Shown one piece after another: positions 24,375-52,139 of a stretch of DNA of 62,917 nucleotides. Source of the stretch: an uncultured Dehalococcoidia bacterium (lineage in GTDB: Bacteria > Chloroflexota > Dehalococcoidia > Lucifugimonadales > UBA826). Numbering within the stretch: the stretch's first letter is position 1; each line of letters opens with the position of its first letter. The notes beneath the pieces are model-generated. The model was given only the letters and a program-made list of their open reading frames with translations. It did not search any database and was not told where the DNA came from. A program made the translations under genes and the position numbers. The stretch spans positions 1 to 62,917 of the forward strand of contig CAZRSW010000011.1 of NCBI GenBank assembly GCA_964602845.1. The letters run 5' to 3'.

Positions 24375-24953
24375 TCAGGTGACAGGAGAAAATTCTTCCT
24401 TAATTAACCCTTGTATGATCACGTCTTGATATTTTCGGTCCAGCAAGCGATGTTGTCGTAAAATCCCCTCGGTTTTATATCCCAACTTGCAGTTGCTATT
24501 GATCCCTCCGGCATTAGACGTAAATGCACCGGAAAGAACCCTGTGAAGTCCCAGAGTGAAAAAAGCGAAACTTAACAACAAACTTCTAGATTCCGTCGCA
24601 AAACCTTTGTTCCAATAGTCTTTCCGTCCTATTAATATTCCTTCCCATGCAAACTTGTGCAACCAATCAATTCCCTGGAGAGTGATATTTCCTATGTGCA
24701 AATTGGTTCTCTTGCAAACAATCGCAAAAAGAAACCTATCTTCCTTGCCCGCAAAACTTCTTACATATGACGTGACTGAATCTAACGTCTGGGGAATATT
24801 AGCTACATCTAGAAAGCGGTTGACCTCTTTATCCAAAAGCCAACCAAGATATTCTTCCGAAATAAATTTCTCTTCAAATGGAATCAAATCGACCCTTTCA
24901 CCACACAGAGTTTCAAGACATTCCAAATTGACCATATTACTAAATATCCTCAC
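24375..24953 (-). CDS. GNAT N-acetyltransferase, RimJ/RimL type (PseH position)
   Basis: HIGNITL, GILIG.K.YWNKGFATE, LGY..EG.LR; directly downstream of pseG. Confidence 0.85.
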   Translation of the reverse strand: MRIFSNMVNLECLETLCGERVDLIPFEEKFISEEYLGWLLDKEVNRFLDVANIPQTLDSVTSYVRSFAGKEDRFLFAIVCKRTNLHIGNITLQGIDWLHKFAWEGILIGRKDYWNKGFATESRSLLLSFAFFTLGLHRVLSGAFTSNAGGINSNCKLGYKTEGILRQHRLLDRKYQDVIIQGLIKEEFSPVT

Positions 24954-25147
24954 ATTACTTTAGAATATTCGTTGCATTTTCGACCAGATAAACGCTGACT
25001 CACACCAACAAATCAGTGATGGATAGATCTATTTATAGTAGGTAGTAGGGTAGGGCAAACCACCCATTTGAGTTTCAGGCATACTGGTACAACCTTTTAC
25101 GATTGGACCAAGGTTAAAAAATTCTATAAAACTATTGATCCAGAGTC

Positions 25148-26191
25148 TTAAGAAGCATAGGAAAACATTATCTCTTCCATAACATCGACTATACGTTCCC
25201 TGCCTAACCCATCTGTTACATTTCGAGACAAGGATGCCACAACCCTCCGTCTCTTACACTCATTAGATAAGAGCTCAATAGTATGTATTAACAAATCAGC
25301 ATCGATATTATCGGCGTCACCACAGTAGACCGCCAGCCCTAGGCGATGTAACTCCTTGGCTATAGCAACCTGATTCTCAGCAACGGAAACAACTATGATG
25401 GGTACCCCAACTAACAACATTTCAAATCCAGTAGTTCCACTTGAACATATGGCTACGTCTGCCCATTTCATATAGTGAGACAGATCAACTGAGAATTGAT
25501 AGCTATTTACAGATATACCGGGTTTGCCTTCCATAGAATCTCGCAAGCCGCTTGTGGAAACATTTCCAACAATCGCAACGTCAATATTTTGGGTATCGAA
25601 GCAATCAAGAGCGCTGAGAATTTTAAGTATCACACCGGTTTGATCTATGCCCCCCATCGTGATCAGTAACTTTAGTCTATCGGATTCACAACACTCGGGA
25701 TAATCTGCGTCAACAACTTCAAGAATTTTATTTCTGAAAACAAAATAGTCTGTCCCTAATAACTGTACACATCCCTTGTTGACCGTATAATCATAATAGC
25801 TACCTGTAACATTCTGATTAACGAGTACGCTGGCTTTGTATGCCACCATGTCAGAATCATCGTCAAAAATCAACAGAGGTGCGATTTCAGAAAACCTGTC
25901 AAACCATGTAGATCTCTGTTTTAGATGATATCCATCAACAACTAGAAATGTTGGACCACCCTGTACGATACGTTCAATTATCGGTTCCAAATCAACTGAG
26001 TCGTCGACCGAAACCAATTCGATATCAGGACTGGAGCTTTCCAACAGACGCTGACCCTGATTGTTTATCGACGAAAAAAACTTGACTTCCCATCCTCCGA
26101 TTATCAACACTTCAGCTAACCCTATGCACCGGCTTAGGTGGCCTAACCCTACCGTGGCGTTCCCGTCAACTCGAAAAATTGCTGTCGCCAC
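25148..26191 (-). CDS. pseG: UDP-2,4-diacetamido-2,4,6-trideoxy-beta-L-altropyranose hydrolase (PseG/SpsG)
   Basis: FRVDG...VGLGHLSRC, VVDGY, ITMGG.D, SSGTT..E, AENQ. Confidence 0.85.
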   Translation of the reverse strand: MATAIFRVDGNATVGLGHLSRCIGLAEVLIIGGWEVKFFSSINNQGQRLLESSSPDIELVSVDDSVDLEPIIERIVQGGPTFLVVDGYHLKQRSTWFDRFSEIAPLLIFDDDSDMVAYKASVLVNQNVTGSYYDYTVNKGCVQLLGTDYFVFRNKILEVVDADYPECCESDRLKLLITMGGIDQTGVILKILSALDCFDTQNIDVAIVGNVSTSGLRDSMEGKPGISVNSYQFSVDLSHYMKWADVAICSSGTTGFEMLLVGVPIIVVSVAENQVAIAKELHRLGLAVYCGDADNIDADLLIHTIELLSNECKRRRVVASLSRNVTDGLGRERIVDVMEEIMFSYAS

Positions 26192-26197
26192 TTCTCT

Positions 26198-27529
26198 CTA
26201 AGTCAACCTTTGAAAACCTGGCATGGGCACATTGTCATTCAGCAACTCTCTGACTCTCCCCGCATCAATAGCAATCATGATCTCCTCTAGCACTTCGGTG
26301 AGAGAATCAGTATATGAAGCTATATGCTCTTCCGTGTGAGCGTACATAGCATAGAATAGATTCAGCGACAGGTAACCTCTACTCAACATCTTCTTCGTCA
26401 AAAGGCCGCGAACTGCGAGAGGATCCTCACACTGGAAATCCACATGGGTAAGGGCCGGCATTCCCTTCGCTGAAAGTGGAAAGCCAATGGTATTTGCGAC
26501 CTCCGAGACAGATTCCTGATAAACGGTCCCAATGTGATTTAAGTGACTTGAAACATCTTCCCTAATATGCTTTTTGATAGTCGCAAGCGCAGCAGTGGGC
26601 CCAATACGTTCTGTCCAACTAGTACTGCTTATGAATGTGCTCTGAGCGGCCTCCATCACATCAGATGTACCCACCACCGCGGCCATGGCGTAACCATTGC
26701 TTATCGACTTAGCAAATACCGCAATGTCTGGATTAACACCATACTTGAGATGAATACCACCGACACATTGACGGAACCCTGTAGTGATCTCATCAAAAAC
26801 AAGAACAGCATCATGCTCATTGGCTAAGCGTTTAACGCCCTCTAGAAATCCTGGGCTTGGCTCGTTGTATCTTATGGGTTCCATCACCACGGCAGCGACA
26901 TTACCCCGATTAGATTCCAGTAGATTCTGAAGTTCTTCCAACTCGTTATATCGAAATGGTAAGGCGGTACCTGCAAGCCCCCTAGGCACTCCTCTAGGTT
27001 CAAGGCCTTGCAACAAGTGATGATCTAGAGCTCCTTCTGCAGAAATATTCGCTGCAAGGTACCAATCACTCCATCCATGATATCCACAGAATATGATTTT
27101 GTCCCTACCTGTATATGCTCTAGATATTCTTACCGCAACTGCCATCGCCTCCCCCCCGGATCTAGCGTACCGAACCTTATCTGCCCACGGATGAATATCA
27201 CAAAGTAATTCCGCAAGTTCCACCTCCTCTGGACAATTCAACGTTGTGGCAACCCCTTTCTTTATAGCGCCGATTACGGCGTCATCAACATCGGGATCGG
27301 CATAACCCAAAATACACGCCCCAATACCCCCATAACTCAGATCCATATATGTCCTTCCGTCTATGCCTCTAACTTCACATCCCTTGGCAGAGTCATAATA
27401 ACTTGGCCAATATTCCGGCAGAATATTCTCCGGTCTCTTTGATAATAATTGGGTCCCTCCGGGAATAATCCTCCTCGCCTTAGCGTAGTATTCTGATCCG
27501 GATTGAGGCTTACTAGTATTTCTTTTCAA
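26198..27529 (-). CDS. Class III PLP aminotransferase (glutamate-1-semialdehyde aminomutase-like, glycan-cluster subtype)
   Basis: PGGTQLLSKRPE, RSGGEAM, GYHGW.DW, FDEITTGFR, FAKSISNG (PLP Lys). Confidence 0.88.
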   Translation of the reverse strand: MKRNTSKPQSGSEYYAKARRIIPGGTQLLSKRPENILPEYWPSYYDSAKGCEVRGIDGRTYMDLSYGGIGACILGYADPDVDDAVIGAIKKGVATTLNCPEEVELAELLCDIHPWADKVRYARSGGEAMAVAVRISRAYTGRDKIIFCGYHGWSDWYLAANISAEGALDHHLLQGLEPRGVPRGLAGTALPFRYNELEELQNLLESNRGNVAAVVMEPIRYNEPSPGFLEGVKRLANEHDAVLVFDEITTGFRQCVGGIHLKYGVNPDIAVFAKSISNGYAMAAVVGTSDVMEAAQSTFISSTSWTERIGPTAALATIKKHIREDVSSHLNHIGTVYQESVSEVANTIGFPLSAKGMPALTHVDFQCEDPLAVRGLLTKKMLSRGYLSLNLFYAMYAHTEEHIASYTDSLTEVLEEIMIAIDAGRVRELLNDNVPMPGFQRLT

Positions 27530-27661
27530 TTACATTCCTCCGTCGACCATCTTTTCTGTGAGAGATGGAATACCATATATCCCCCATCAAACAACTCATC
27601 TCCCGCTGGTGATTTTCCTAAATCTCGATCATCCATATATACCTTAAAGAAAATCGATTAC

Positions 27662-28846
27662 TCAAATTGAGTAGCAATCCAGAACTCGATGCAATGCAGT
27701 CATTACATCACGACAATCCTCGTCGCCCATGCCGGGATAAATTGGTAAGGTCAAAATCTCATCATAAACTTGTTCTGCTACTGTACAAAGACCCAACTCG
27801 TACCCATTAGATCGGTAAGCCGAATGCCAATAAACTGGCATGTAATGAACGTGGACACCAATGTTTTCAGATCTGAGCGCCCTAAATATTGTATCCCTAT
27901 CAACCTTTAAATGTTCGAGTTTTAACTTAACTATATATAAGTGATAGGCATGCCCCACTTCGCCAGAGACCGCCAATGGTTCGACGCATTTGGTCCCATT
28001 AAGGTTGTCATCAAAATAGGCCGCTATTTCCCTTCTACGTCGTAAATTTGATTCCAGCCTGTCCAACTGACTTAATGCCAATGCACAATGTATGTCCGAC
28101 AATCTATAGTTGTAGCCTTGCTCAATAATGTCGTATTGGTGCCTTACATTTGACATCCTACTTTTATGGTCCTCTCCAATCCCATGATTACGAAAGCGCC
28201 GAACATATTCTGCTACTGCGCGGTCGTTAGTAATAACCGCCCCACCTTCACCAGCAGCAACATGTTTTACCGGATGAAAAGATAAGGTCGAAACATTAGA
28301 CACCGAACCGATCTGATCCCCTTTATAAGTGGCACCTAGAGCATGGCTTGAGTCACTAATAAGGGCAATACCTTGTGACTCAGCCAATGAATTCAGTTCA
28401 TCATAGTCACAAGGATGACCAGCAAAATCTACTGGAACAATCATCTTCGTTCTTTTAGTTATTTTTCGTTCCACATCAGAGAGATCCATAAGTAAATTGT
28501 CTGGGTTAATATCTACAAAAACAGGTCTTGCCCCACAATAAAGTACAGCGTTAGCCGTGGCCGCGAACGTTATAGCCGGGACTATCACCTCATGCCCCGG
28601 GCCAATATCCAAAGATTTCATAGCAGCATGCAGAGCCGCGGTTCCACTTGATACTACCGCCGAATATCGAGCACCGGTTTGATGCGATAATTCCTCTTCA
28701 AATCGATCTACCGAAGGCCCGGTGGTAAGGAATCCCGACCCCAAAACTTTTGTGACAGCCTCTATATCAGTTTCGCAAATTTCATGCCTGCCATACGGTA
28801 GAAAAGTTGATCGAACAGGTATACCACCTTCTGCAGCAATTGTCAT
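27662..28846 (-). CDS. pseC: UDP-4-amino-4,6-dideoxy-N-acetyl-beta-L-altrosamine transaminase
   Basis: LPYGRH, FLTTGP, SSGTAALH, SFHPVKH..GEGG, GYNYRLSD; adjacent to pseB. Confidence 0.88.
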   Translation of the reverse strand: MTIAAEGGIPVRSTFLPYGRHEICETDIEAVTKVLGSGFLTTGPSVDRFEEELSHQTGARYSAVVSSGTAALHAAMKSLDIGPGHEVIVPAITFAATANAVLYCGARPVFVDINPDNLLMDLSDVERKITKRTKMIVPVDFAGHPCDYDELNSLAESQGIALISDSSHALGATYKGDQIGSVSNVSTLSFHPVKHVAAGEGGAVITNDRAVAEYVRRFRNHGIGEDHKSRMSNVRHQYDIIEQGYNYRLSDIHCALALSQLDRLESNLRRRREIAAYFDDNLNGTKCVEPLAVSGEVGHAYHLYIVKLKLEHLKVDRDTIFRALRSENIGVHVHYMPVYWHSAYRSNGYELGLCTVAEQVYDEILTLPIYPGMGDEDCRDVMTALHRVLDCYSI

Positions 28847-28852
28847 ACTATC

Positions 28853-29830
28853 CTAATCCTCGACCATTCTTACTAATTCCGACGAACTAACCCAATTGGA
28901 ATTTGTATCACTCCGATATTCAAAGCCATCAACAACAGGCTCAGATTCTGGATAAATAGGAGGAGCAAACCATGGGTTGATAGGCATGATAACGTACCGA
29001 TCCCCCAAATCAATCGCTGTGCGAGATTCATCACTGGAAATCAAAACTTCGTGTAGCTTTTCTCCGGGCCTAATACCAACAAATTGCTTCGAACAACCCG
29101 GAGCTATCGCCTCTGCAAGGTCCACAATACGCATACTGGAGATTTTAGGGACAAAAACTTCCGCACCCTGCATATCTGCCAAACATGAGATAACAAATTG
29201 AACTCCTTGCTCTAGAGTTATCCAAAACCTAGTCATCCTTTCATCCGTGATAGTGAGCGTACCCGTATCAGCTTGGCTCCTAAAAACAGGAATAACGCTA
29301 CCTCTGCTCCCAACAACATTGCCGTACCGTACACAACTAAATCTTGTCCTGCCAATACCAGAATACGAATTCGCCTGGATGAAAAGTTTCTCTGCGCATA
29401 GCTTGGTCGCTCCATAAATGTTTATGGGATTGACAGCCTTATCTGTACTCAATGCGATGACCTTCTCGACTCCCTGGTCGATTGAAGCGTCAATAATATT
29501 TTGGGCTCCAAAAACATTAGTTTTTACTGCCTCCATAGGATTATATTCACAAGCTGGCACCTGCTTCAAAGCAGCAGCGTGGATTACATAGTCAACCCCT
29601 TGCATAGCCCTTTGAAGTCGATCTTTATCTCTGACATCACCTATGAAGAAACGGATTGAGGCCGAGTCGATTTCAGAAGCCATTTCCATTTGCTTCAACT
29701 CATCCCTACTAAAGACAATCAATTTGGCCAGATCGCTCTGCCTCAATAGTGTGTTAACAAATTTCCGCCCGAAGGACCCTGTTCCGCCCGTGATCAGCAA
29801 GGTTTTATTGTCAAAATTTGGTTTAGTCAA
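28853..29830 (-). CDS. pseB: UDP-N-acetylglucosamine 4,6-dehydratase (inverting)
   Basis: TGGTGSFG, SRDELKQ, HAAALKQVPACEYNP, STDKA.NP.N.YGATK, RYGNV.GSRGSV, RPGEKLHE. Confidence 0.93.
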   Translation of the reverse strand: MTKPNFDNKTLLITGGTGSFGRKFVNTLLRQSDLAKLIVFSRDELKQMEMASEIDSASIRFFIGDVRDKDRLQRAMQGVDYVIHAAALKQVPACEYNPMEAVKTNVFGAQNIIDASIDQGVEKVIALSTDKAVNPINIYGATKLCAEKLFIQANSYSGIGRTRFSCVRYGNVVGSRGSVIPVFRSQADTGTLTITDERMTRFWITLEQGVQFVISCLADMQGAEVFVPKISSMRIVDLAEAIAPGCSKQFVGIRPGEKLHEVLISSDESRTAIDLGDRYVIMPINPWFAPPIYPESEPVVDGFEYRSDTNSNWVSSSELVRMVED

Positions 29831-29966
29831 CGTGTTAAATCCTTATAACTAGAAACTGCTTGAGATTGAATCGCCTTCTATACACACCCATTGCCACTCC
29901 CGCTATGAGCAATAAGGCCAACCTAGCAAAGACAGATACTACGAGTGGTCGAATCTTCACGCAGTA

Positions 29967-31022
29967 TTATTGGTTCTCTCGATTAGCCCTCAAATAGTTG
30001 TCCATTTCACCAATATCCATCCAATACTCATGAATCGGAAAACCTACTACCCGATCACCCTCGATGATAAGGGCACTAATAAGGTCGGTCATATCGTAGT
30101 GTTTATCGTTAGGAATTTGATTAAGGGAAGTCCTACTAATAACATAGATGCCCGCATTCACAAAATGATGAAACGTCGGTTTTTCCTCAACAGATAAGAC
30201 TATTCCATTGTCCATGCGAACAACGCCAAACGGTACAGTATATTGGTGATCCTTAACTCCAACTGTCATTGATGCAACAGAATCCTTGTGAAATTCAACC
30301 ATAGATGCAAAATCGACGTCTGTCATGATATCCCCGTTAACCACTAGGAGATCTTTACTTGCTATATCTAACCAACTCAAAGCTCCCGCAGTACCCATCG
30401 GTTGATTTTCCTCTATATAGTTAATATCTACACCAATCGCAGAACCATCGCCAAAATATTCCTGGATAGATTCTCTTTTATAAAACGTGGTGATATGTAT
30501 CTTAGTGACACCATACTCCTTCAATCCTAATAAGATTCTTTCTAACAAGGGCTTGCTTCCTACCTCCAGCATCGGTTTAGGTTTGTTCTTGGTGAGGGGC
30601 ATCAGCCTTTTACCGAAACCACCAGCCATAATGACTGCCTCCAAATCATCGATTACATTCAAATCTATTTCTCGGTATGTCAGAACATTAACCACTCTAT
30701 CTTGATCATCCAAGAGTGGGATTTGTCTTATGCCCGCCTTCGCCATAATGTTCTTAAGTTGAACTCTGTCGGTCGACTCGTGGGCACTTACAGGATTCCG
30801 AACTCTATTAGCAGCTCTCCGATCTTTTATCACACTAACTGGCTCTGATATGTCGTGCCCATCCAGAATGGCTCTCCGTAAATCACCATCCGTGATCACA
30901 TCAAGCAATCTTCCTTCTTGATCAATAACAATTGCAGCCTTTATAGATTCTCTCTCTATGCAGGCCATAGCATCCTTAAACGATGCGGTAGGGGATATAA
31001 ATAATCTTGAACTATTTTTCAT
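29967..31022 (-). CDS. CBS-domain sugar-phosphate nucleotidyltransferase (PtmE-like, legionaminic acid clusters)
   Basis: N-terminal CBS pair (TDGDLRRAIL), then MAGGFGKRL.PLT..PKPML, GTAGAL, NGD, YWMDIG. Confidence 0.88.
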   Translation of the reverse strand: MKNSSRLFISPTASFKDAMACIERESIKAAIVIDQEGRLLDVITDGDLRRAILDGHDISEPVSVIKDRRAANRVRNPVSAHESTDRVQLKNIMAKAGIRQIPLLDDQDRVVNVLTYREIDLNVIDDLEAVIMAGGFGKRLMPLTKNKPKPMLEVGSKPLLERILLGLKEYGVTKIHITTFYKRESIQEYFGDGSAIGVDINYIEENQPMGTAGALSWLDIASKDLLVVNGDIMTDVDFASMVEFHKDSVASMTVGVKDHQYTVPFGVVRMDNGIVLSVEEKPTFHHFVNAGIYVISRTSLNQIPNDKHYDMTDLISALIIEGDRVVGFPIHEYWMDIGEMDNYLRANRENQ

Positions 31023-32514
31023 CGACCTGAAAATGATGAGGATAAAATTTACACAAAGCTTCTTTTGCTACCTGTGCCAGCCCTTCCTCATCCTCCGGGC
31101 TCAATTTCGGATATTCTATTCCCACCATTTCAAAAGAATTATCTATCTGTGCCTTGTTAAGACTTTTTCTCGATAAATCAAACGAAGAATCACCATCTTT
31201 AATCATAAGTAGATCATTCAATCCTTTAAGAGTAGAGGTGTAGTCAGAAGCAAACCGAACTGTTGGTAGCAAATTCACGAACTGATGACATCCAAATGAA
31301 AGAACCCGTCTGCTCATATTAATAGCCTCGATAGCAGCAGTTCCAGTTATTGTTGCCGTGACTTGTGATGCCATTATCCATTCCCACGGATGTACTTTGG
31401 GGTGCGCAAGGACAACATTCGGCATCCTCCTGAGGTGTTCATAAAGCCCCTTTGATCTTATTCCAAAACTAAAAGGTTGCTCTTTCACAACCAACAAAGT
31501 ATTAGCGGGTGAAGCTTTCGAGATCCAAGATATCATTTCCCAAGAATTATTAAATTCAGGGGATACTGAAAGCAATGCGACCTCTGGCTCTAAATGGAGA
31601 GGTATATATATCAATCTATACTCCTCTGAGATATCATCCGGCGTAACCCCATTCTTAACAAAGTATTTGTACATGGCCGGCCTCTTCAGAATTGGTTTAT
31701 ACCAACCTAAGTTAATCGCACCACGGCCTGGAGGACGTTTTCCAATACTGAGGCTTCTCCTATATAATCTTGACAGCCAGATTCTGACAAACCAGTACGT
31801 ACTTTTCCTCAACCTTCTGAGCACCGTCAACAGAGCGCCATTGTAAGAATAATCGACCTTCTGGTGTAGCATTTTTGAAACAGAGACTTGTTTGTAATCA
31901 GACTGAATTGATCCACTCAACAATTGAGGGTTTTTAACATGAGTTAAGACAGCTTTACTGAGACCAGGGTTATCTGTATAGCCATTCTCCGCCCACAAAT
32001 ATCTATCTCCAAATTTAGCATTCACAAGGCTTAAATCAAGTACATTATTGGACTTGGCTACAAGACTTAGCACCCGTTCTATATACATACCCACCACAAC
32101 GTCCGGTTTAATCTCTGCAAAAATCCTTTCGTACGTCTTAAACTGAGATAAAACGTTACGTAGTTTCTGAGAATGATTCCACCGCGCCCTTTTCAAATCA
32201 GGATGAAGATCAGCATTAAAAATATATCCCTTTCCTAATCCTCTCTCATGGGACATGATCAACGCGAAATTTTCCCCGTATTTCTTTTCTCTTTCAAGAC
32301 ATTCTTCCAGTAACAATTCATCCTTGATGTCATGAGTGTTATCTAAGGATGTATCGATGTTTGCAGAAAGATGAGGACTAATTTGTTGTATAAGGGATAC
32401 CAATGAGGGTCTTGTTACAAAAGTAACATTGTGGTCATTAGAGAGCAAACTGCCAAGTTGAATTAAGAAGGTGGCTTTTGCGGGTGTAACTTTAATAAGT
32501 ATATGTTTTTTCAT
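31012..32514 (-). CDS. Capsule_synth/KpsS-like GT-B protein (candidate CMP-ulosonate transferase)
   Basis: YIPLHLEPE...L.VKEQP...TITGTAAIEA pattern of the capsule-biosynthesis family. Confidence 0.65.
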   Translation of the reverse strand: MKKHILIKVTPAKATFLIQLGSLLSNDHNVTFVTRPSLVSLIQQISPHLSANIDTSLDNTHDIKDELLLEECLEREKKYGENFALIMSHERGLGKGYIFNADLHPDLKRARWNHSQKLRNVLSQFKTYERIFAEIKPDVVVGMYIERVLSLVAKSNNVLDLSLVNAKFGDRYLWAENGYTDNPGLSKAVLTHVKNPQLLSGSIQSDYKQVSVSKMLHQKVDYSYNGALLTVLRRLRKSTYWFVRIWLSRLYRRSLSIGKRPPGRGAINLGWYKPILKRPAMYKYFVKNGVTPDDISEEYRLIYIPLHLEPEVALLSVSPEFNNSWEMISWISKASPANTLLVVKEQPFSFGIRSKGLYEHLRRMPNVVLAHPKVHPWEWIMASQVTATITGTAAIEAINMSRRVLSFGCHQFVNLLPTVRFASDYTSTLKGLNDLLMIKDGDSSFDLSRKSLNKAQIDNSFEMVGIEYPKLSPEDEEGLAQVAKEALCKFYPHHFQVDEK

Positions 32515-35431: not shown

Positions 35432-35447
35432 ATACTCCCCTTACACA

Positions 35448-36227: not shown

Positions 36228-36236
36228 AATAGTAAT

Positions 36237-39922: not shown

Positions 39923-40021
39923 AACCTTAATGTTTAGTAAAGATTTGATAAAACCCTAAGTGGACCAAAATCCTCAATTTATGAGCCATATTAAAGCAAA
40001 AACATGTCCAACATAAATTAC

Positions 40022-40846
40022 TCATACCGATTTTTCTTCAGGTGCCCTGACAGTATTTGCATGTCGGCTAGTCCTATGAACGCTCAATAGCCTGTTAGCC
40101 AACTCAAACTGACTGATAATTTTCAGAATTCCATCTACCACCATGATCAATACTACTACTCCGAAAACGTATTCCCTCAGACCATCTATCGTCGCTAGTA
40201 TCAAAGCAATCAAAATGGAGTCGAAAAGAACATCACTAGGTAGCTGCGGAATAATCGCTTTGGAATCAAGATCTTTTATCTGGGCTAACCATTCAACACT
40301 CTTAAGAGTATCCGCCCTGTACCACTCTCTATGAAAACTGAACCTAGCTCGGATATATTCAGCAAACAACCAGAAAAATCCTGTCGATAGACCTCCACAC
40401 AACAGAAATATCTTATCGGTACTCAAATATAGGGACATACCATAGAAAATCGGCATTATAGATATGACCAAAGCATCAACCGCCCCATCAAGAAATTTGC
40501 CAAAATAAGTGGCCTTGTCATTCGCCCTGGCAATATTGCCGTCGACAGCATCAAGGACAACAGCAAACTGGTATATGAGACTTCCAACGAGCCACCATAT
40601 CCACGTACCAGGTAGCAACAATAACAAACCCAGCAGGGAAAATATCAAGCCAAGCACTGTTACCAAATTCGGTGTCAGGCCAAGCATTAGAAAAAATGGT
40701 GTAATAAGAAATGACACCGGCCTTATCCAGTATCGCCATAAAAACCCTGTTTGACTGGTATGATCAAAATTGTCTTTAGCTCTGTTGTAAGTACGCGAAT
40801 AATTTACGTAAAATAGCCTAAACATTTCAATCAACTCATCACACAA
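40022..40846 (-). CDS. CDP-alcohol phosphotransferase family membrane protein
   Basis: TPNLVT and the complete signature D-AV-DG-NI-AR-x8-G-KFL-D-GAV-D; several TM segments. Probable start at MFRLF. Confidence 0.9.
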   Translation of the reverse strand: MCDELIEMFRLFYVNYSRTYNRAKDNFDHTSQTGFLWRYWIRPVSFLITPFFLMLGLTPNLVTVLGLIFSLLGLLLLLPGTWIWWLVGSLIYQFAVVLDAVDGNIARANDKATYFGKFLDGAVDALVISIMPIFYGMSLYLSTDKIFLLCGGLSTGFFWLFAEYIRARFSFHREWYRADTLKSVEWLAQIKDLDSKAIIPQLPSDVLFDSILIALILATIDGLREYVFGVVVLIMVVDGILKIISQFELANRLLSVHRTSRHANTVRAPEEKSV

Positions 40847-40966: not shown

Positions 40967-42118
40967 TTAGGTTCCAGATCCTGCAAAATAACTCTCCAGA
41001 ACGCTTTCCCTCACCGTATCCAAAGTACAACAATGTATACCACCACTTATCAAATACGAATGTCGGAACTTTGTCGGTACGACCGTAAAACCATACTGTT
41101 CCAAAGTCTTGATAAGGTTGATTTGACGATCGTCTACTATCACTGTATTGGGATCAAGAGACAAGAAATTCATGCCAATCCATTTGGACGATATTGATCC
41201 AAGATTACTCTCAATGCCCATACTTAGGAGCTCATTATAGATTGGCAATCTCACCTTATGGTGGAACTCTTGAGTAGCCTCTGGAATAGGTTCAATATCA
41301 TGAAAATATATCTTTTCCCATTCATCAAAAATAGCCGGGCAGTTGCTAGTATCTACCCGATCTCCGTTCAACAAAACTAATCCTGGCCGAAGACATAAGA
41401 CTGTAGAATCAATATGGCTCGACTTGTAAATCTTATCGGTGGTATGGACTTTATATTCTTCCCCTAAAATATGCTGCAGCCATCTTGCTCCTAGATAATT
41501 GCCAGATCGAGACACAAGATAAAGTAGGTCAGTACCCATACGAACAGTATTAGCAGCCTCAAATAAGATTTCATCTTCCATAAGCTTCACATATTTTTGG
41601 CCATCGTCATATTGATCTCGACCATCCTCCATATATGAGGTCATGTGTTCAGAACTAAATCGTGGTTTAGGACTCGATACCCAACGAAATCCATTTTCTT
41701 TCATATATTCATAAAATATGTCATACAATCCGATAGGTTCAAAGAAACGGTGTTGCTCCTGCGATGGTGATTCTATGACCATGTCACCAACAACCAAATG
41801 TAAATCCCTCATGTTATATATATGCTCCGCTGCTCCAGCTATAAATGGAGTCTGGAATTCGACCCCCACAGAGTCTAAATTAGGGCGGTGCACCTTCACA
41901 TTGAAATCCTCGAATATCTTGTTCAAACCTTCAAGATCTTCAGACACCTCATCGGATAACCATTTCGGGTAGGCCTGAGCGCTAAGATCTTTGGCCTTAT
42001 TCAATACATTTTCAGTCGGGATTTTATTGGACAAAAACCTAAGCGACGCTGGCCCCTCGGCTCTTCCAAGTATCACCTCCTTCAAAGTATCCCATTCATT
42101 ATGACTATTTATTTTCAT
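40967..42118 (-). CDS. L-arginine amidinotransferase (glycine/inosamine-phosphate amidinotransferase family)
   Basis: NSHNEWD.LKEVI.G, RD, FEAAN, HIDST, GMN.LS, GGIHCCTLD..R (catalytic Cys/His). Confidence 0.88.
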   Translation of the reverse strand: MKINSHNEWDTLKEVILGRAEGPASLRFLSNKIPTENVLNKAKDLSAQAYPKWLSDEVSEDLEGLNKIFEDFNVKVHRPNLDSVGVEFQTPFIAGAAEHIYNMRDLHLVVGDMVIESPSQEQHRFFEPIGLYDIFYEYMKENGFRWVSSPKPRFSSEHMTSYMEDGRDQYDDGQKYVKLMEDEILFEAANTVRMGTDLLYLVSRSGNYLGARWLQHILGEEYKVHTTDKIYKSSHIDSTVLCLRPGLVLLNGDRVDTSNCPAIFDEWEKIYFHDIEPIPEATQEFHHKVRLPIYNELLSMGIESNLGSISSKWIGMNFLSLDPNTVIVDDRQINLIKTLEQYGFTVVPTKFRHSYLISGGIHCCTLDTVRESVLESYFAGSGT

Positions 42119-42125
42119 TATCGCT

Positions 42126-43073
42126 CTACATTCCTCCTTTTTGGGATCCAGACGTTATCATCTGCAAAATGTTTGCATGATCCTCTCTATTAAGTTCCAA
42201 ATTATTGGACTCGTAATCTGAGGACTGCGGTGTAAAACAATTATTGGCGCGAAACCCACAAATGATCCCCAATTTCCGTAGTATCTCAAGAGTCTCATGA
42301 TTGTAAGAATCCGCCGGATGTGCCATGGCTAACACTTCAGACTCACATACTTTTTGGATGTGGTGAAGATTTCTACGATATTCATTCCATTGATCTTGGT
42401 AGGGCAGTGTAGCGATCACCATAGGATGGGAGTAGGAATGCAGTCCAATGACATGTCCGAGATGACGTAGTTCCAACAGATTCTCATTGGTCATCCACAT
42501 ATGCCGACCTAAATCTTCTTCTTCGATCCCATAATCCTGAATGATTTGATCCATGAAGCCCTCAAAGGACTTCGGCGTTAAAACCTGATCTCTAATTATT
42601 CGGAATTTTGCGTCTTCAGTGGAGTAAAACGGTGCTGCTGAAATTACTTTGTTCAAACTCCGCTCATTGATCAATGTCAAAGCTTTATTTGAAAAAGGCG
42701 ATTTATCCACTTTTTCGAAAAACAATTCATAAAATTCGTTTATCTCATCGAAATAGGAACACCGGAAACGCCGATACATCTCGAATTTTGATCGAAAACC
42801 CTCAAACACACTGGAATAAATGAACCAGAATGCTTGGATCCCATACTCCTCCATAACTGGTAGAGCAACTTCAAACTGGCACAATAAAGAGTCATCGAAC
42901 GTGAGGCATATATCCTCATTTTTCAGCTGATGTGAACTTAATCGACCCAACCATTCATAAGGCGTTATAATTCTTTCCGGGCCAATATATTCAATGATCT
43001 GCCTAAACTCCGCCGCCGAAATAGATCCTTGACCACGCAAATGGCGTCCACCATCATGAAGATGGTGAAACAT
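42126..43073 (-). CDS. Polysaccharide deacetylase (NodB/CE4 family)
   Basis: MFHH, CLTFDD, IGLHSYSHP, MAHP. The true start may be the upstream in-frame CTG at 43106. Confidence 0.85.
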   Translation of the reverse strand: MFHHLHDGGRHLRGQGSISAAEFRQIIEYIGPERIITPYEWLGRLSSHQLKNEDICLTFDDSLLCQFEVALPVMEEYGIQAFWFIYSSVFEGFRSKFEMYRRFRCSYFDEINEFYELFFEKVDKSPFSNKALTLINERSLNKVISAAPFYSTEDAKFRIIRDQVLTPKSFEGFMDQIIQDYGIEEEDLGRHMWMTNENLLELRHLGHVIGLHSYSHPMVIATLPYQDQWNEYRRNLHHIQKVCESEVLAMAHPADSYNHETLEILRKLGIICGFRANNCFTPQSSDYESNNLELNREDHANILQMITSGSQKGGM

Positions 43074-43167
43074 TACCCCATGGGGACCGGATACCTGATA
43101 TTTCAGAACGTTGTGATCTCCCTCATAGCTAGATACCTATCACGCAGCAATGTCGTGTTGTTATGGC

Positions 43168-44154
43168 TCAAACTATGTATCCCTGTGTGCTGTAATGATG
43201 TAGATTTGACTTCATCCAAGATATCGTTTTAGAAACACCATTTTCAATGGACACTTTGGGTAGCCATGCTAGTAACTTGCCAGCTTCCTCAGAATTCGAT
43301 ATCAACCTATCTACTTCGCTGCTATTTGGCCTTATACGTTGGTTATCCCGTTTCACTGTGGAGTCAGAATTCGTCAACTTTATACAAATATTCACTAACT
43401 CTTCCACGGAATAATCCATCCCTGTGCCAAGTTGAATGGTCTTACCTTCCACTCCATTGGCATTAAATGCCTTAACGAACCCATCTACGGTATCAGACAC
43501 ATATGTCATATCGCGGCGAGGCCACAAAGATCCCAATTTTATCTCTTTTTGATTGTTTAAAATCTGGGTTAAGACTGTAGGCAATATAGCCTTGTTAGAT
43601 TGTCTGGGTCCATATGTGTTGAAGGGTCTCAATATCACAGCCGGCAATTCATAACTGTAAAAAAAACTCTCTGCCAACTTGTCAGCCGCTATCTTAGATG
43701 CCGCGTATGGCGATTGAGCCTTAAGAGGATGGTTAGAAAATATTGGGACAGATTTCGGTGATCCATACACCTCACTACTGGACGTTTGTATAAATCTTTG
43801 GCAGCCGTACCTTACAGCAGCTTCCAGCATATTTAAAGTGCCGAAAACGTTAGTGTCTATAAAGGAACGCGGCGATTGAAACGAATACGGAACAGAAATC
43901 AAGGCAGCGAGATGTGCTATGTAATCACATCCTTTAACAAAAGCTTCCGCCGATCTGGCATCCCTTATATCACCGGTGACTATCTCAACAGCTTCTGCGG
44001 TTCTTGGTTCCATGTCCTTTAACCAGCCTATGGAATCTGAGGAATTATACAACGCTGTCGCCCTCACTTCCCAACCATCTTTAACCAACCGTTCTACGAG
44101 ATGGCTACCTATAAATCCATCAGCTCCTGTCACCAGGACTTTCTTATTATTCAC
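43168..44154 (-). CDS. legB: NAD-dependent 4,6-dehydratase, LegB-like
   Basis: TGADGFIGSHL.E.L, YNS...GWL, HLAALI..PYS, QSPYAASK, RPFNTYGPRQS. Confidence 0.78.
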   Translation of the reverse strand: MNNKKVLVTGADGFIGSHLVERLVKDGWEVRATALYNSSDSIGWLKDMEPRTAEAVEIVTGDIRDARSAEAFVKGCDYIAHLAALISVPYSFQSPRSFIDTNVFGTLNMLEAAVRYGCQRFIQTSSSEVYGSPKSVPIFSNHPLKAQSPYAASKIAADKLAESFFYSYELPAVILRPFNTYGPRQSNKAILPTVLTQILNNQKEIKLGSLWPRRDMTYVSDTVDGFVKAFNANGVEGKTIQLGTGMDYSVEELVNICIKLTNSDSTVKRDNQRIRPNSSEVDRLISNSEEAGKLLAWLPKVSIENGVSKTISWMKSNLHHYSTQGYIV

Positions 44155-44912
44155 TCGTTGTCACTAAGATGTTCACTGTAAACAGAGTTAATTTTTCCCT
44201 GTAGCATTAGTTCTATTATTTCCATGTTGAATAAATCATCAGCTTCAATAGCTCGTTGCCTTGGAACAATGTACCCCCCCCACTTACCTGTATGCAGATG
44301 CGACACCTTATCCATACTTGACCTACGATATGCAAATACCGAACCACTAACTCCGTAGGACTTAGGTGCATCCTGGCGTCTGATTACACCATGTGCAGTT
44401 TCCTTGCTTAAACTGATCTGTTCTTTCTTTTCAGGATCGTTATCAATAAACTCCACCATGGTGTAATAGGGATTCAACTCCGGAATATACACCGTCACCG
44501 CAGCGTCGAATTCTCGATTTCCGTGCAACAGTTTTATAACCCCGCCGATATCTTCTGGCTGACGTTGGGGGACCGTCACATCCAAATCTACTACGACATC
44601 GGGAAAGAACCCATCATTATTTTCTACATACCGAGTGGCATGGAGTATGGCATCTATCTTAGGAGACACATCCGTGCTATATTCTGCTGGTCTATTAAAC
44701 GGCACATCTACCCCCAAACCTCTCACCAAATCTGCAATCTCTTTGCTATCAGTCGTCACAATGAATTGATCTATCGAACTGCAACGAATGGCACAATCAA
44801 TCGTATACTCAATTAGTGGACGACCGTTGATACGGTAAACATTCTTACCCTTAATCCCCTTAGATCCTCCTCTTGCGCAAATTGTCGCCAGAACTTTAGG
44901 ATCTTTATACAT
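44151..44912 (-). CDS. neuA: Acylneuraminate cytidylyltransferase (NeuA/LegF/PtmB family)
   Basis: TICARGGSKGIKGKN, RP...S.D..PK, LD.T.P.R, RRQDAP. Confidence 0.85.
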   Translation of the reverse strand: MYKDPKVLATICARGGSKGIKGKNVYRINGRPLIEYTIDCAIRCSSIDQFIVTTDSKEIADLVRGLGVDVPFNRPAEYSTDVSPKIDAILHATRYVENNDGFFPDVVVDLDVTVPQRQPEDIGGVIKLLHGNREFDAAVTVYIPELNPYYTMVEFIDNDPEKKEQISLSKETAHGVIRRQDAPKSYGVSGSVFAYRRSSMDKVSHLHTGKWGGYIVPRQRAIEADDLFNMEIIELMLQGKINSVYSEHLSDNE

Positions 44913-44916
44913 CTTT

Positions 44917-46101
44917 CTAATACGTCATCTTTTTCTGTACAAGTTTCTTATCAAGATCAACAGTTGCCAATACATTCACGATTTTCGATCCAGTATCACC
45001 GTTCCCGTATGGATTATCGCATCCCGCAACTCTAGCCTGGAACTCCGAATCATCCATACAGGCCTCAATAGCATTGATGATCTCATCAGAGTCATAACCT
45101 ACGTCAATAACATTCTCAGCTCTCATCCTCCCCCTTTGCCTACTACCAATGTTGATACAGGGGCATTTGAACGCAGCTGTCTCTTTAATCCCACTAGATG
45201 AATTGCCAATACAGATGTCGCTCACGTTTAATAGACCGTGATATCTATACCGGCCGAGGTTCTCTATCACCCTTATGAAAGGCAGTTTTTTCTTCTCAAA
45301 CAACCTTATTTCTTCGATGATACTCCGACCTCCTGCATCATTATTGGGATAGGTGATTACAGACTGAAACCCCCACCTATTCCCCGCGGCTTCGAGGGCA
45401 GCCAAGGAGGAATTAATCTGCTGTGCGGCCTCAGAAAATTCGGTGGGGACGGCATGTTGTGTAAAAGCCAAGATTGGCAATTCTCTATCCAGATCCAAGA
45501 ATGAATATATCTCCTCGGGAGCAGCAAAGCTACCTTCCCTTATAAGATCTATTGTGGGGTAACCAACATCATGAACTCTCCAGGGCTCCTCGCCCATTGC
45601 TAAAACTCGTTCTTGGGCAGATAAATTTGTGGTGAAATGTATGTGTGCTAACTTCGTCATAGCGTGCCTGACCGAGTCATCTAAAGCACCACCATCCGTG
45701 TAATCTCCCCCTTCCACATGAGCTGTCGGAATCCCCATTTGAGTACCAGCAATCAAAGCAGCAAATCCTTCAAATCTGTCCGCATATACGACTAGGATAT
45801 CTGGCACCATAGATTTTAGAGCCTCGCTGACTCCCATAACACCCGAACCTATTGCGGAAGCAGTTGAATATATATGATCCGTCTCTAGATCAAGTTCAAT
45901 CTCAGTATCGACCACAAAACCATCCTTTCGGATTTCATCCAATGTATCACCAAATTCACCTTTCAAATGGGCTCCGGCGACAATCAACTTGTAGTTCAAT
46001 CTCTCGTCTTTGTCAATTGCTCTTATGATAGGGTACTGAAGCCCATATTCAGCACGATTGCCAGTAAAGACAGCGATTGTCCTCTTGTTATGACCGCTCA
46101 T
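44917..46101 (-). CDS. neuC: NDP-N-acetylglucosamine 2-epimerase, hydrolysing (NeuC/LegG family)
   Basis: TG.RAEYG, DRFE, HVEGG, D...RHA.TKLAH.H, GNSSSGI.E, NIG.RQ.GR, NPYG.G. Confidence 0.9.
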   Translation of the reverse strand: MSGHNKRTIAVFTGNRAEYGLQYPIIRAIDKDERLNYKLIVAGAHLKGEFGDTLDEIRKDGFVVDTEIELDLETDHIYSTASAIGSGVMGVSEALKSMVPDILVVYADRFEGFAALIAGTQMGIPTAHVEGGDYTDGGALDDSVRHAMTKLAHIHFTTNLSAQERVLAMGEEPWRVHDVGYPTIDLIREGSFAAPEEIYSFLDLDRELPILAFTQHAVPTEFSEAAQQINSSLAALEAAGNRWGFQSVITYPNNDAGGRSIIEEIRLFEKKKLPFIRVIENLGRYRYHGLLNVSDICIGNSSSGIKETAAFKCPCINIGSRQRGRMRAENVIDVGYDSDEIINAIEACMDDSEFQARVAGCDNPYGNGDTGSKIVNVLATVDLDKKLVQKKMTY

Positions 46102-47032
46102 AATATTGCTCTCGGATTAACTCGTTTAAGCCAAGTTCAAGGTCCACTAAAGGGTCCCAATCTATAGCGTCTCGAAGTTTGTTGTTGTTCAAAACCAGCT
46201 TTGATTTACTGTCACGTTTTTCTCTCGGCACCTCACCATTAAGACCCATCTTGACACTATGTCGATTGCCACTAAGTTTGACCACCAAATCTGCTACGTC
46301 ACCAACGGAATACCCGATGTTAGTAGAAATATTGAACTCATTCCAGTAACCCAAGTTTTTGCTCTTCAACAAGCCGATAATCGCACTGGACACATCATTG
46401 ACGTGAATGAAGTCCCTAACTGGACCAGGGTCCTTTATAAAAATATCCTGACCTCTCGCTACCTGTTGGATTAAACCGCCGATTAAGGTAAATGCCTTGC
46501 TATTTGGCCCATATACATTCGCCAACCTGATCACCAACACCTCACAGCTCAATCCTTGAGTGACAACTCGAGCTGACAATTCACCTGCCAACTTACTAAA
46601 AGCATAATCTGACTCCGGTCTCAGCTCCGCAGATTCTGTCAAAGGTTCCTCTGAATTGTTACCATAGACATAAGCCGTAGAAGCAATGATCAATCTTCTG
46701 ATCCCCGCTTCAACGCAAGCTCTAGCTATATTAGTTGTACCAAAAACATTAGTAGATAAATATTGGGACGATCGATTATCAGCGTTGTCGTTTCGGGTTT
46801 CCGCGGCCAAATGAACTACGCTACTACATCCGTCGAAGACTCTTCGCAACGCTGCAAGATCTCTAATATCAGCTGAGTCAGTCTCAACCAGACCAGATGC
46901 CAACCTACAATCCTGATGAGAATTCGGTCGGCGAACCGCCCTAACCTTTAGAGACCCATCTAACACGATGTCTTCTATAAGCCTAGACCCTATTTGCCCA
47001 AAGGCCCCTGTGACACATATTGTTTCAGTCAA
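46088..47032 (-). CDS. NAD-dependent epimerase/dehydratase (extended SDR)
   Basis: VTGAFGQIG, HLAA, ST..VYG, YAFSK, R.ANVYGP, RDFIHV.D. Confidence 0.88.
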   Translation of the reverse strand: MTETICVTGAFGQIGSRLIEDIVLDGSLKVRAVRRPNSHQDCRLASGLVETDSADIRDLAALRRVFDGCSSVVHLAAETRNDNADNRSSQYLSTNVFGTTNIARACVEAGIRRLIIASTAYVYGNNSEEPLTESAELRPESDYAFSKLAGELSARVVTQGLSCEVLVIRLANVYGPNSKAFTLIGGLIQQVARGQDIFIKDPGPVRDFIHVNDVSSAIIGLLKSKNLGYWNEFNISTNIGYSVGDVADLVVKLSGNRHSVKMGLNGEVPREKRDSKSKLVLNNNKLRDAIDWDPLVDLELGLNELIREQYYERS

Positions 47033-47052
47033 GACAGTACTGGATGGTGCTT

Positions 47053-48084
47053 TCAGAAAATATCATCGTATCTCAATTGAGTGTTGGCCGATACATCTTT
47101 TTTGACCTTACGACCCAACATGTTCTCAAATTCCTCTGCTGGGATCTGGCCAGTACCTGGTCTCTTGACCCATATATTACTCTGATCCAATACTTCATCT
47201 TTAGCTATGTCTCGGATAGAGACTACAGACGCATAGGCAAAATCAATAGTCGGTTGTTCGTCAGATAAGATAGTCTTGGTTCCCCCTGACGCCCTGAATA
47301 TCGCGTTAACCCCAATGATGAGATCTCTCAACTCCTCTGTGTCGAGAGATATAGGAACATCAGGCCCAGGCCATGATTTATCAGAAGTAAAGTGCTTTTC
47401 AATAGCACATGCACCTAAAGCAACCGCAGCAAAACTGGTGTAATTGCCCATTGAGTGATCACTTAACCCAATAATCGCGTCCGGAAACGAATCACGCAAT
47501 TGACTCATACCACCCAGTCTAACCTTTTCGTATGGAGTTGGATACATTGAGGTGCAGTGGTTAAGAAGGAAAGGAACGCCTTCACCACGTAGAATCTCCA
47601 CCGCTGGTGCTATCGACTTAAGATCATTCATGCCAGTACTTAAAAGAACTGGTTTACCATATGAGGCTATGTGTTTTACTAGGGGGTAATTATTGCATTC
47701 TCCAGACCCAATTTTATAAGCTGACACACCCATTTTTTCCAGTCGTTCAGCGGCTGCCCTGGAGAAGGGAGTCGACAGGTAAATCATACCTTTTGATTCA
47801 ACATATTCCTTTAATAGGATCTCTTGGTCTGCACTAAACGAACACCGAACTATTATCTCCCAAATTGACTCAGTAGTATTTCCCGGAATAACATCGTTGG
47901 GTATCATTTCATCTTCAACCACGTGACACTGAAATTTGACACACTCGCACCCAGCTGACGCAGCATCATCCACCATCTGAATAGCTTTCTCGTACTCACC
48001 TTCATGATTTATGCCAATTTCTGCAATCACCAATGGTGGCTCATCAGGACCTATATTTCTACCTTCGATCTCAAATTTCCGCAT
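47053..48084 (-). CDS. neuB: N-acetylneuraminate synthase with C-terminal SAF/AFP domain
   Basis: AEIGINHEG, H.VEDEM, VIPGN, STPFSRAAA, KIGSGECNNYPL, STGMN, YPTP, LSDH, EKHFT, GPD, WVKRPGTG; SD GAGGTG upstream. Confidence 0.92.
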   Translation of the reverse strand: MRKFEIEGRNIGPDEPPLVIAEIGINHEGEYEKAIQMVDDAASAGCECVKFQCHVVEDEMIPNDVIPGNTTESIWEIIVRCSFSADQEILLKEYVESKGMIYLSTPFSRAAAERLEKMGVSAYKIGSGECNNYPLVKHIASYGKPVLLSTGMNDLKSIAPAVEILRGEGVPFLLNHCTSMYPTPYEKVRLGGMSQLRDSFPDAIIGLSDHSMGNYTSFAAVALGACAIEKHFTSDKSWPGPDVPISLDTEELRDLIIGVNAIFRASGGTKTILSDEQPTIDFAYASVVSIRDIAKDEVLDQSNIWVKRPGTGQIPAEEFENMLGRKVKKDVSANTQLRYDDIF

Positions 48085-51955: not shown

Positions 51956-52139
51956 GATGTCACTATTTATAATTTAACTCCCTCTTAACTTTCATTTTGA
52001 TGGCAAGCTCCGCCGTTTCGGTCCAAACCGACAAATTTGAAACTATTTGAAGGCACACCTCCCGGAGCGCTGGCTTCAACGATCTGGTATGCCTTTATTG
52101 TCGAGACGTAATAACCAATCCTCCACAAAAACTGGTTAT
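51956..52139 (-). promoter_or_regulatory. Candidate structured RNA spacer between the NusG paralog and the first biosynthetic gene
   Basis: Four consecutive hairpins in the transcribed strand, at 52111-52139, 52047-52079, 52018-52031 and 52002-52014; folded by eye only. Confidence 0.35.

Follow-up and report, generated by a model that had tools for sequence, protein, structure and literature searches.

A StrB1-like amidinotransferase paired with a CE4 de-N-acetylase in nonulosonic acid loci: a possible route to guanidino sugars

We analysed a stretch of 62,917 nucleotides (contig CAZRSW010000011.1 of assembly GCA_964602845.1, from an uncultured Dehalococcoidia bacterium), referred to below as the window. 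On its − strand the gene of a StrB1-like L-arginine amidinotransferase (AT) follows that of a de-N-acetylase of carbohydrate esterase family 4 (CE4), next to a set of genes for the synthesis of a nonulosonic acid (NulO). The AT keeps the catalytic residues of its family and belongs to a clade whose linkage to NulO genes recurs in very distant microbes. From the gene content of these loci we consider it fairly probable that the AT performs an arginine-dependent amidination of a free sugar amine, giving a guanidino nonulosonate that would be N-methylated in many lineages.

An amidinotransferase with intact catalytic residues

The pair occupies the following positions:

40967..42118, − strand: StrB1-like L-arginine amidinotransferase (AT), 383 aa, triad Cys363-His235-Glu187; proposed amino-sugar / nonulosonate N-amidinotransferase
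42126..43106, − strand: CE4 de-N-acetylase, 315 aa counted from the first ATG (43073); probable start upstream, near a CTG at 43106

Compared with the PDB by phmmer, the AT is closest to StrB1 (1bwd, E 4.8e-64), then to SxtG (1e-46), human AGAT (about 1e-41) and HsvA (1e-40), while the superfamily hydrolases DDAH, ADI and ArgZ score far weaker (about 1e-9 to 1e-10). Pfam gives a weak, sub-threshold ADI match and nothing else. The NCBIfam scan gives only weak DDAH and ADI matches, and none to TIGR03573, the family of the PseA/PtmG/WbuX N-acetyl-sugar amidotransferases. Residue equivalences were read from HMMER alignments to AGAT and StrB1:

Asp105 of the AT: Asp170 of AGAT, arginine/ornithine binding
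Glu187: Asp254, catalytic carboxylate
His235: His303, catalytic His
Asp237: Asp305, arginine/ornithine binding
Arg254: Arg322, arginine/ornithine binding
Ser311: Ser355, arginine/ornithine binding
Cys363: Cys407, catalytic Cys

Asp105, His235, Asp237, Arg254, Ser311 and Cys363 are invariant across 15 AT homologues. Position 187 is either Glu or Asp, and in the window protein the catalytic carboxylate is retained as Glu187, one methylene longer than Asp. The motifs around these residues are F186-E187-A-A-N, H235-I-D237 and G-G-I-H362-C363; at the first of them StrB1 has FDAAN, AGAT has FDAAD and the window AT has FEAAN. An earlier note on this DNA had singled out the Cys (GGIHC), the His (HID) and FEAAN, and all three are there. 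Its opposition of FEAAN to the FDAAD of AGAT, on the other hand, marks no clade: 5 of the 15 aligned clade members have Asp as residue 187, and the pseudaminic acid (Pse)-type subclade described below has FDAAN in every row. FEAAN was therefore discarded as a functional signature, since the column varies between Glu and Asp inside the clade.

The AlphaFold2 model of the AT (predicted local distance difference test, pLDDT, 81.9; predicted template modelling score, pTM, 0.82) has the five-fold beta/alpha propeller of this family. Searched with Foldseek, it again retrieves 1bwd first (1.3e-29, target TM-score, TMt, 0.80), followed by SxtG, HsvA and AGAT, the superfamily hydrolases coming far lower. 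By fold, nucleophile, His, carboxylate and arginine-binding residues alike, the AT belongs to the AGAT/StrB1-type amidinotransferase family.

In a library of 1.84 billion representative proteins, phmmer with the AT as query (sequence only) found 1168 clusters at E ≤ 0.001 and 111 at E ≤ 1e-30; the NulO-type AT clade collapses there to a few 50% clusters. One entry of the library (P0144, 5280 aa) has 26 separate stretches that match AT residues 301-344, and looks like a giant repeat protein made of a piece resembling one blade of the AT fold.

The CE4 de-N-acetylase

Between the end of the CE4 stop codon (42126) and the ATG of the AT (42118) there are 7 bp. The CE4 protein matches Pfam Polysacc_deac_1 (PF01522) at 2.9e-15. 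Its motif 1, TFDD (58-61), and motif 2, HSYSH (212-216), are invariant in 17 homologues, with T58, D60, D61, H212 and H216 conserved in 17/17 sequences. In CE4 enzymes the first of these motifs supplies the catalytic base and the metal-binding Asp, and the second, H(S/T)xxH, a pair of metal-binding His. The AlphaFold2 model (pLDDT 83.4) is closest by Foldseek to PplD (1.8e-9), then to the IcaB, PgaB and BpsB de-N-acetylases. It adopts the deformed (beta/alpha) barrel of such enzymes, with a predicted extra helical insert at about residues 97-190, between motifs 1 and 2.

The reading frame stays open 5' of the ATG at 43073 (window 43074-43136), where the codons read ...LKYQVSGPHGV-MFHH. The homologues share the N-terminus PHG[IV]MFHHFH, which the window sequence upstream of the first ATG matches. 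Because this open frame encodes the conserved PHG[IV]MFHH, the true start probably lies upstream of 43073. The sole near-cognate start within 43074-43136 is the CTG at 43106, and the gene may thus have a non-canonical start. The earlier note had put the end of the CE4 gene at this same CTG, a sensible choice given the conserved N-terminus, and its 7-bp spacing agrees with the coordinates above.

Neither the AT nor the CE4 protein has a signal peptide or a membrane/hydrophobic segment (maximum Kyte-Doolittle(19) of CE4, 1.23). Since both lack a hydrophobic segment, both are probably cytoplasmic.

NulO genes are found in 44 of 80 CE4-homologue loci. Several of these loci have no AT (L116, L118, L120, L125, L102, L147, L158 and others); their CE4 genes often directly adjoin a WbuX-type N-acetyl-sugar amidotransferase gene accompanied by HisH/HisF, or NeuB/NeuC genes. 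About 30 more CE4 homologues lie in loci with no recognised NulO gene.

A Leg/Neu-type nonulosonate locus beside the pair

The genes near AT and CE4 are all on the − strand. Immediately upstream of the CE4 gene come:

43168..44154, − strand: LegB-like NAD-dependent sugar 4,6-dehydratase (TIGR04180, 404.7 bits, below the cut-off of 475; Pfam GDP_Man_Dehyd / Epimerase)
44151..44912, − strand: CMP-nonulosonate synthetase, a NeuA/PseF/LegF-type cytidylyltransferase (Pfam CTP_transf_3, 6.6e-16; best NCBIfam PseF, 86.5 bits, below cut-off)
44917..46101, − strand: hydrolysing NDP-sugar 2-epimerase of NeuC/LegG type (TIGR03568, 381 bits, above the cut-off of 235.9)
46088..47032, − strand: SDR epimerase/reductase of the NulO set (Pfam Epimerase, 4.1e-41)
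47053..48084, − strand: nonulosonate synthase of NeuB/LegI type (Pfam NeuB, 1.2e-71, plus SAF; TIGR03569, 357 bits, cut-off 399.65)

NeuB, NeuC, CMP-transferase and 4,6-dehydratase genes thus stand together at 43168-48084, as in legionaminic acid (Leg)/Neu-type NulO loci. NeuC exceeds its curated cut-off; NeuB and the LegB-like protein score high yet below their equivalog cut-offs. The placement of the pair next to legB and neuA, already noticed earlier, is borne out by the LegB-like and cytidylyltransferase genes found just upstream.

Farther upstream and in the same direction are genes for a helix-turn-helix (HTH) regulator, a NusG-like protein, two UDP-sugar dehydrogenases and an epimerase, followed by the NeuB set. 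The HTH/MarR-like and NusG-like proteins (52136-53376, − strand) stand at the head of this long same-strand glycan locus and look like a dedicated antitermination/regulation pair.

One clade of amidinotransferases is linked to nonulosonate genes

Many AT homologues are 58-66% identical to the window protein, all of them uncharacterised. Loci were taken from species-representative genomes, 17 at first and then 80, these being the best 80 of 118 AT relatives; open reading frames (ORFs) were called in them and compared by BLASTP with the window proteins and with each other. The AT tree, from a quick IQ-TREE search with the AGAT-like FDAAD rows as root, has 78 rows, i.e. 77 loci and the window, three loci (L059, L062 and L063) having been dropped as too short.

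A single clade of 57 rows (56 loci and the window; SH-aLRT 97) contains every AT with CE4 or NulO genes nearby. Of the 56 clade loci, 44 have NulO genes at most 10 kb from the AT; of the 21 loci outside the clade, none has. CE4 lies within 2.5 kb in 42/46 loci of the two Leg-type subclades, and again in none of the 21. ATs at least 41% identical to that of the window are NulO-linked, and those at most 38% identical are not. The counts by group are:

Subclade i (Pse-type), 10 loci: NeuB 8, NeuC 0, PseG-like 4, any NulO gene 8; CE4 within 2.5 kb 0; methyltransferase within 2 kb 6
Subclade ii (Leg-type, that of the window, window uncounted), 15 loci: NeuB 12, NeuC 10, PseG-like 0, any NulO gene 12; CE4 within 2.5 kb 15 (13 within 150 bp); methyltransferase within 2 kb 12 (all within 150 bp)
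Subclade iii (Leg-type), 31 loci: NeuB 18, NeuC 16, PseG-like 1, any NulO gene 24; CE4 within 2.5 kb 27; methyltransferase within 2 kb 19
Outside the clade, 21 loci: NeuB, NeuC, PseG-like, any NulO gene, CE4 and methyltransferase all 0

The hosts include bacteria of the candidate phyla radiation (CPR; Parcubacteria, Saccharibacteria), a DPANN archaeon, Pelagibacteraceae and Prochlorococcus, as well as Acidobacteriota, Planctomycetota, Leptospiraceae and Magnetovibrio. Across these distant phyla the linkage recurs with differing gene orders and overlapping reading frames. Because it spans such distant hosts, the link between AT and nonulosonate genes is no local accident. The earlier note had named the neighbourhoods in other genomes as the place where its proposal could fail for want of NulO genes; there the link holds.

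Acetyltransferases, methyltransferases and the nature of the acceptor

The commonest BLASTP clusters in the first 17 loci are NeuB, CE4, SDR, CMP-transferase, NeuC, DegT, two clusters of methyltransferases and a GFO oxidoreductase; among the gene clusters of the compared loci there is no ligase conserved beside the AT. Loci with CE4 belong to the Leg type and encode a NeuC-type epimerase. In these loci six of seven candidate ORFs (L030, L026, L033, L007, L006 and L009) encode a Hexapep/PglD_N N-acetyltransferase, the seventh (L043) having turned out to be a methyltransferase. L030 resembles a Campylobacter-type leg cluster into which AT-CE4 is inserted.

The CE4-less loci of subclade i are built differently. 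In L054 the gene order is PseB-PseC-PseG-PseF-PseI-AT, and L046, L051 and L014 are alike: such minimal Pse-type operons contain PseB, C, G, F, I and the AT, at times a methyltransferase, and nothing more. No GNAT or LegH reference found a BLAST match in the 10 CE4-less subclade i loci. PseH (TIGR03585) exceeds its cut-off in none of five genomes of this subclade, which are incomplete (0.8-2.5 Mb), the GNAT family being divergent. According to this pattern, a deacetylase accompanies the AT where both nitrogens would be acetylated, and none is present where the acetyltransferase is missing.

A WbuX/PseA-type gene (TIGR03573, 354.8 bits), accompanied by HisH and HisF, occurs in 8 of the 56 AT loci. 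Since it is a separate gene in these loci, the AT is not another name for the acetimidoyl function, in keeping with the earlier remark that the PseA/PtmG enzymes are unrelated to the AT. The distribution of acetyltransferase and CE4, the Pse operons with no PseH, the lack of a conserved ligase and the separate WbuX gene together indicate that the acceptor is probably a sugar amine.

In 37 of the 56 clade loci a gene for an S-adenosylmethionine (SAM) methyltransferase (Pfam Methyltransf_11) lies no more than 2 kb from the AT, and one metagenome protein (P0122) consists of an AT with a SAM methyltransferase as its C-terminal part. The PDB and NCBIfam matches of these methyltransferases are generic class I.

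A proposed pathway to guanidino nonulosonates

We propose that the AT-CE4 pair is a modification module of the nonulosonic acid pathway. The cytoplasmic CE4 would strip one N-acetyl group from a di-N-acetylated legionaminic-type intermediate, be it a nucleotide-linked sugar, a free sugar or the CMP form. Cys363 would attack the guanidino carbon of L-arginine, taking the amidino group and releasing ornithine. The freed sugar amine would then accept this amidino group, so that an N-acetyl would be replaced by an N-guanidino. Methylation of the product probably follows in many relatives, where a SAM methyltransferase is encoded next to the AT or fused to it; the window AT has none adjoining. In the Pse-type subclade, with neither PseH nor CE4, the AT would most simply take the place of the N-acetyltransferase and act on the 4-amino sugar, the hexose 4-amine (future N7) being the obvious candidate nitrogen.

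We infer the acceptor, the order of the steps, the modified nitrogen (N5 or N7) and the product. Deacetylation followed by amidino transfer, the order suggested in the earlier note, fits the comparative genomics, i.e. acetyltransferase genes in the loci with CE4 and Pse operons with neither PseH nor CE4; the guanidino sugar that it foresaw remains a prediction. Taken more broadly, we see an even chance that a clade of arginine:amino-sugar amidinotransferases is dedicated to making a widespread but hitherto unobserved class of sialic-acid-like sugars, in which N5 or N7 bears a guanidino or N-methylguanidino substituent.

The guanidino product and the ordinary di-N-acetyl sugar are nominally isobaric, differing by 0.0112 Da. 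Because of this, routine mass spectrometry could have missed the guanidino form.

Several observations weigh against this proposal. No NulO gene is seen in the fetched flanks of 12 of the 56 clade loci; several of these are on short contigs, and three (L028, L032 and L038) have full 10-kb flanks and are true exceptions. An AT lies within 3 kb in only 22 of the 80 CE4-homologue loci: the CE4 family is broader than the AT, and CE4 is therefore a more general partner. The lack of PseH is to be read with the incompleteness of the genomes and the divergence of its family mentioned above. The neighbouring methyltransferases could be O-methylating. A search of the window and its genome with a methyltransferase of the c8 type as query found none, and none adjoins the AT. 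In the metagenome protein P0123 an AT of this clade is fused to an ATP-grasp ligase at its N-terminal side, a hint that at least one lineage may use an aminoacyl acceptor. The gene directly downstream of the window AT encodes a CDP-alcohol phosphotransferase, and another contig (C10) of the same genome encodes an inositol-1-phosphate synthase. Finally, our literature search, which left most subscription journals outside and so gives no proof of novelty, found no report of a natural guanidino nonulosonate.

A phosphoramidate cassette downstream of the amidinotransferase

A cassette resembling the phosphoramidate genes Cj1415-1418 of Campylobacter lies 1 kb downstream of the AT; with the CDP-alcohol gene that precedes it, it spans 34910-40846 (− strand). 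It comprises:

40022-40846, − strand: CDP-alcohol phosphotransferase resembling PIP synthase / DIPP synthase, the next gene downstream of the AT
Cassette: 999-aa protein, an N-terminal nucleotidyltransferase joined to a PRK05849 kinase (837 bits)
Cassette: C26 amidohydrolase matching gamma-glutamyl-CDP-amidate hydrolase
Cassette: nucleotidyltransferase (NTP_transf_3)
Cassette: PRK05541 kinase

The NCBIfam names of these proteins agree with the roles of Cj1415-1418. The CDP-alcohol enzyme might transfer phosphoramidate from CDP-amidate. The same cassette adjoins the AT module of the Magnetovibrio locus L037. A tie between the AT and either the cassette or the CDP-alcohol transferase was considered and rejected, since among the 56 clade loci a homologue of the CDP-alcohol enzyme occurs in none and a GlnK homologue in one (L037). 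The cassette is treated here as a separate feature of the locus.

Alternative explanations

The AT might amidinate an amino acid, another small amine or an aminoacyl group attached to the sugar, which would lead to a guanidino-acyl substituent and not to a ring-nitrogen guanidino. The P0123 fusion speaks for this, nonulosonates bear varied N-acyl groups, and creatine is likewise made from glycine by an AT and then a methyltransferase. But P0123 is a single protein whose AT part has FNAAS and GGLRC instead of F[DE]AAN and GG[IL]HC, the catalytic acid and the His before Cys being altered. Moreover no ligase gene is conserved beside the AT, and the minimal Pse-type operons offer PseB, C, G, F, I and AT with or without a methyltransferase. 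We regard this explanation as unlikely.

It is very improbable that the window AT acts like StrB1 on an aminocyclitol phosphate, which the CDP-alcohol phosphotransferase and the nucleotidyltransferase would attach to a glycan. StrB1 is indeed the closest solved relative, and the likeness of the next gene to PIP synthase / DIPP synthase, the N-terminal nucleotidyltransferase domain of the 999-aa protein and the inositol-1-phosphate synthase on C10 would all suit a cyclitol. However, a homologue of the CDP-alcohol transferase is found in 0/56 clade loci and 0/21 outside, this enzyme is more simply assigned to the phosphoramidate cassette that follows it, and beside the AT the window has no inositol dehydrogenase or aminotransferase set. 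The conserved partners of the clade are CE4 and the NulO genes.

We give still less credit to the AT being a superfamily hydrolase (deiminase/amidinohydrolase), or an enzyme that amidinates the phosphoramidate nitrogen of the adjacent cassette. ADI and DDAH typically have Glu in the triad, and the cassette is close by both in the window and in L037. Residue 187 nevertheless switches between Glu and Asp inside the clade, the AT is far nearer to the transferases in sequence and fold, and a single clade locus of 56 has the GlnK homologue of the cassette. Lastly, the presence of the AT in one of 41 genomes marks an accessory gene, as would suit genes that are neighbours by chance or hitch-hike in a variable glycan island with no common pathway, an idea that is hardly credible since the linkage recurs, with varied gene orders and overlapping frames, in very distant phyla and an archaeon, and that the tree and locus counts already contradict.

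Other genes of the window and its genome

A second sugar set and a neighbouring protein lie farther downstream:

24375..31022, − strand: CBS-nucleotidyltransferase (PtmE-like), PseB, PseC, class-III aminotransferase, PseG-like gene, GNAT
31012..32514, − strand: 500-aa protein with no Pfam family of its own

PseB (506 bits, cut-off 408) and PseC (434, cut-off 423.5) exceed their thresholds, and PseG (147.7, cut-off 153.55) falls below. The class-III aminotransferase (26198-27529, − strand), between PseC and the PseG-like gene, has as best NCBIfam matches the glutamate-1-semialdehyde aminomutase models and the guanitoxin transaminase GntE (201.7 bits, below cut-off). The 500-aa protein clusters by BLASTP with ORFs of the AT loci L002, L004, L005 and L007, and the L004 member matches Pfam Capsule_synth (1.9e-9); it is a tentative candidate for the transferase of the modified sugar. 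No NCBIfam family (E ≤ 1e-10) and no Pfam family was found for 34179-34913 and 32545-33249; for 33432-34169 there was likewise no NCBIfam family at that threshold, and Pfam gave only a weak Formyl_trans_N match.

The genome of the window has 1.88 Mb in 35 contigs and four NeuB-family synthase genes (C14:40574-41290, C14:16831-17520, C24:2449-3165 and that of the window), an unusually heavy investment in nonulosonate sugars for this size. The set of 41 genomes mentioned above consists of this genome and 40 relatives, the AT being found in the window's own.

Significance

Nonulosonic acids cap flagella, capsules, S-layers and lipopolysaccharides, and determine surface charge as well as phage and immune recognition. 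A guanidino group is protonated at any physiological pH. If our proposal is true, the modification would turn an acidic sugar into a zwitterion with a permanently cationic group, a stronger effect than that of acetimidoyl. The recurrence of the AT-CE4 pairing in distant microbes suggests that undescribed, positively charged (guanidino) surface sugars exist. The clade reaches very abundant ocean microbes (SAR11, Prochlorococcus) and the small-genome CPR and DPANN, whose surface chemistry is to our knowledge almost unknown. The synthetic drug zanamivir is a guanidino analogue of sialic acid, and a natural route to guanidino nonulosonates would be of interest for glycobiology and chemoenzymatic synthesis.

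The literature search described above, with the same limit, found no publication linking amidinotransferases to nonulosonic, legionaminic, pseudaminic or sialic sugars, or relevantly to O-antigen. The main text of the SugarBase preprint (10.64898/2026.04.20.719630) contains neither 'guanidin' nor 'amidin'.

Comparison with known systems

StrB1, the L-arginine:scyllo-inosamine-4-phosphate amidinotransferase of streptomycin synthesis, is the top match of the window AT in sequence and fold, and shares with it the FxAAN motif, the Cys/His and the arginine-binding residues. Its acceptor is carbohydrate-like, as we propose for the window AT. The two differ at Glu187, which is Asp in StrB1, in their context (aminoglycoside cluster against nonulosonate genes) and in their acceptors (a cyclitol phosphate against the proposed amino sugar or nonulosonate), and they stand in separate parts of the family. 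The aminocyclitol/aminoglycoside pathway genes expected around a StrB1-type enzyme are missing from the surroundings of the window AT, where NeuB, NeuC, CMP-transferase, LegB-like and CE4 genes are found instead, as in the whole clade. Judged by this context, the window AT is not a StrB1 orthologue.

In the synthesis of creatine, AGAT transfers the amidino group and GAMT then performs a SAM-dependent methylation; the methyltransferases near the AT, and the one fused to it, recall this succession. AGAT however has FDAAD, the proposed acceptor is not glycine, and the methyltransferases here are generic Methyltransf_11 proteins whose likeness to GAMT is not established.

Closer in setting are PtmG/PseA/WbuX and PtmH, which form the acetimidoyl and N-methylacetimidoyl Leg and Pse of Campylobacter: here too a module placed among leg genes introduces a cationic, amidine-type N substituent that is then methylated. 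As described in the preprint 10.64898/2026.04.20.719630, PtmG and PtmH occupy the same place in the Campylobacter cluster. Fold and chemistry are nonetheless unrelated, since PtmG-type enzymes amidate an existing N-acetyl group whereas the AT would move the whole amidino group of arginine onto a free amine.

The same preprint describes a Leg-type cluster of Ca. Kuenenia stuttgartiensis in which a deacetylase and a formyltransferase lead to CMP-NulOs whose amine is either free or formylated, formed at the level of nucleotide sugars (10.64898/2026.04.20.719630). There, as proposed here, a deacetylase encoded among nonulosonate genes exposes an amine, and a second enzyme gives it a new substituent. 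The second enzyme differs, being a formyltransferase, and the deacetylase is likened to the window CE4 by its description in that text, not by sequence.

HsvA, the polyamine amidinotransferase of Erwinia amylovora, and SxtG of saxitoxin synthesis have the same fold as the AT, are bacterial and use acceptors other than glycine. They are less similar to the AT (1e-40 and 1e-46), act on polyamines and on a toxin intermediate, respectively, and have no sugar context. Set beside all these systems, the chemistry of the window AT would resemble that of AGAT-GAMT, or in its outcome that of PtmG-PtmH, applied to a new class of acceptor.

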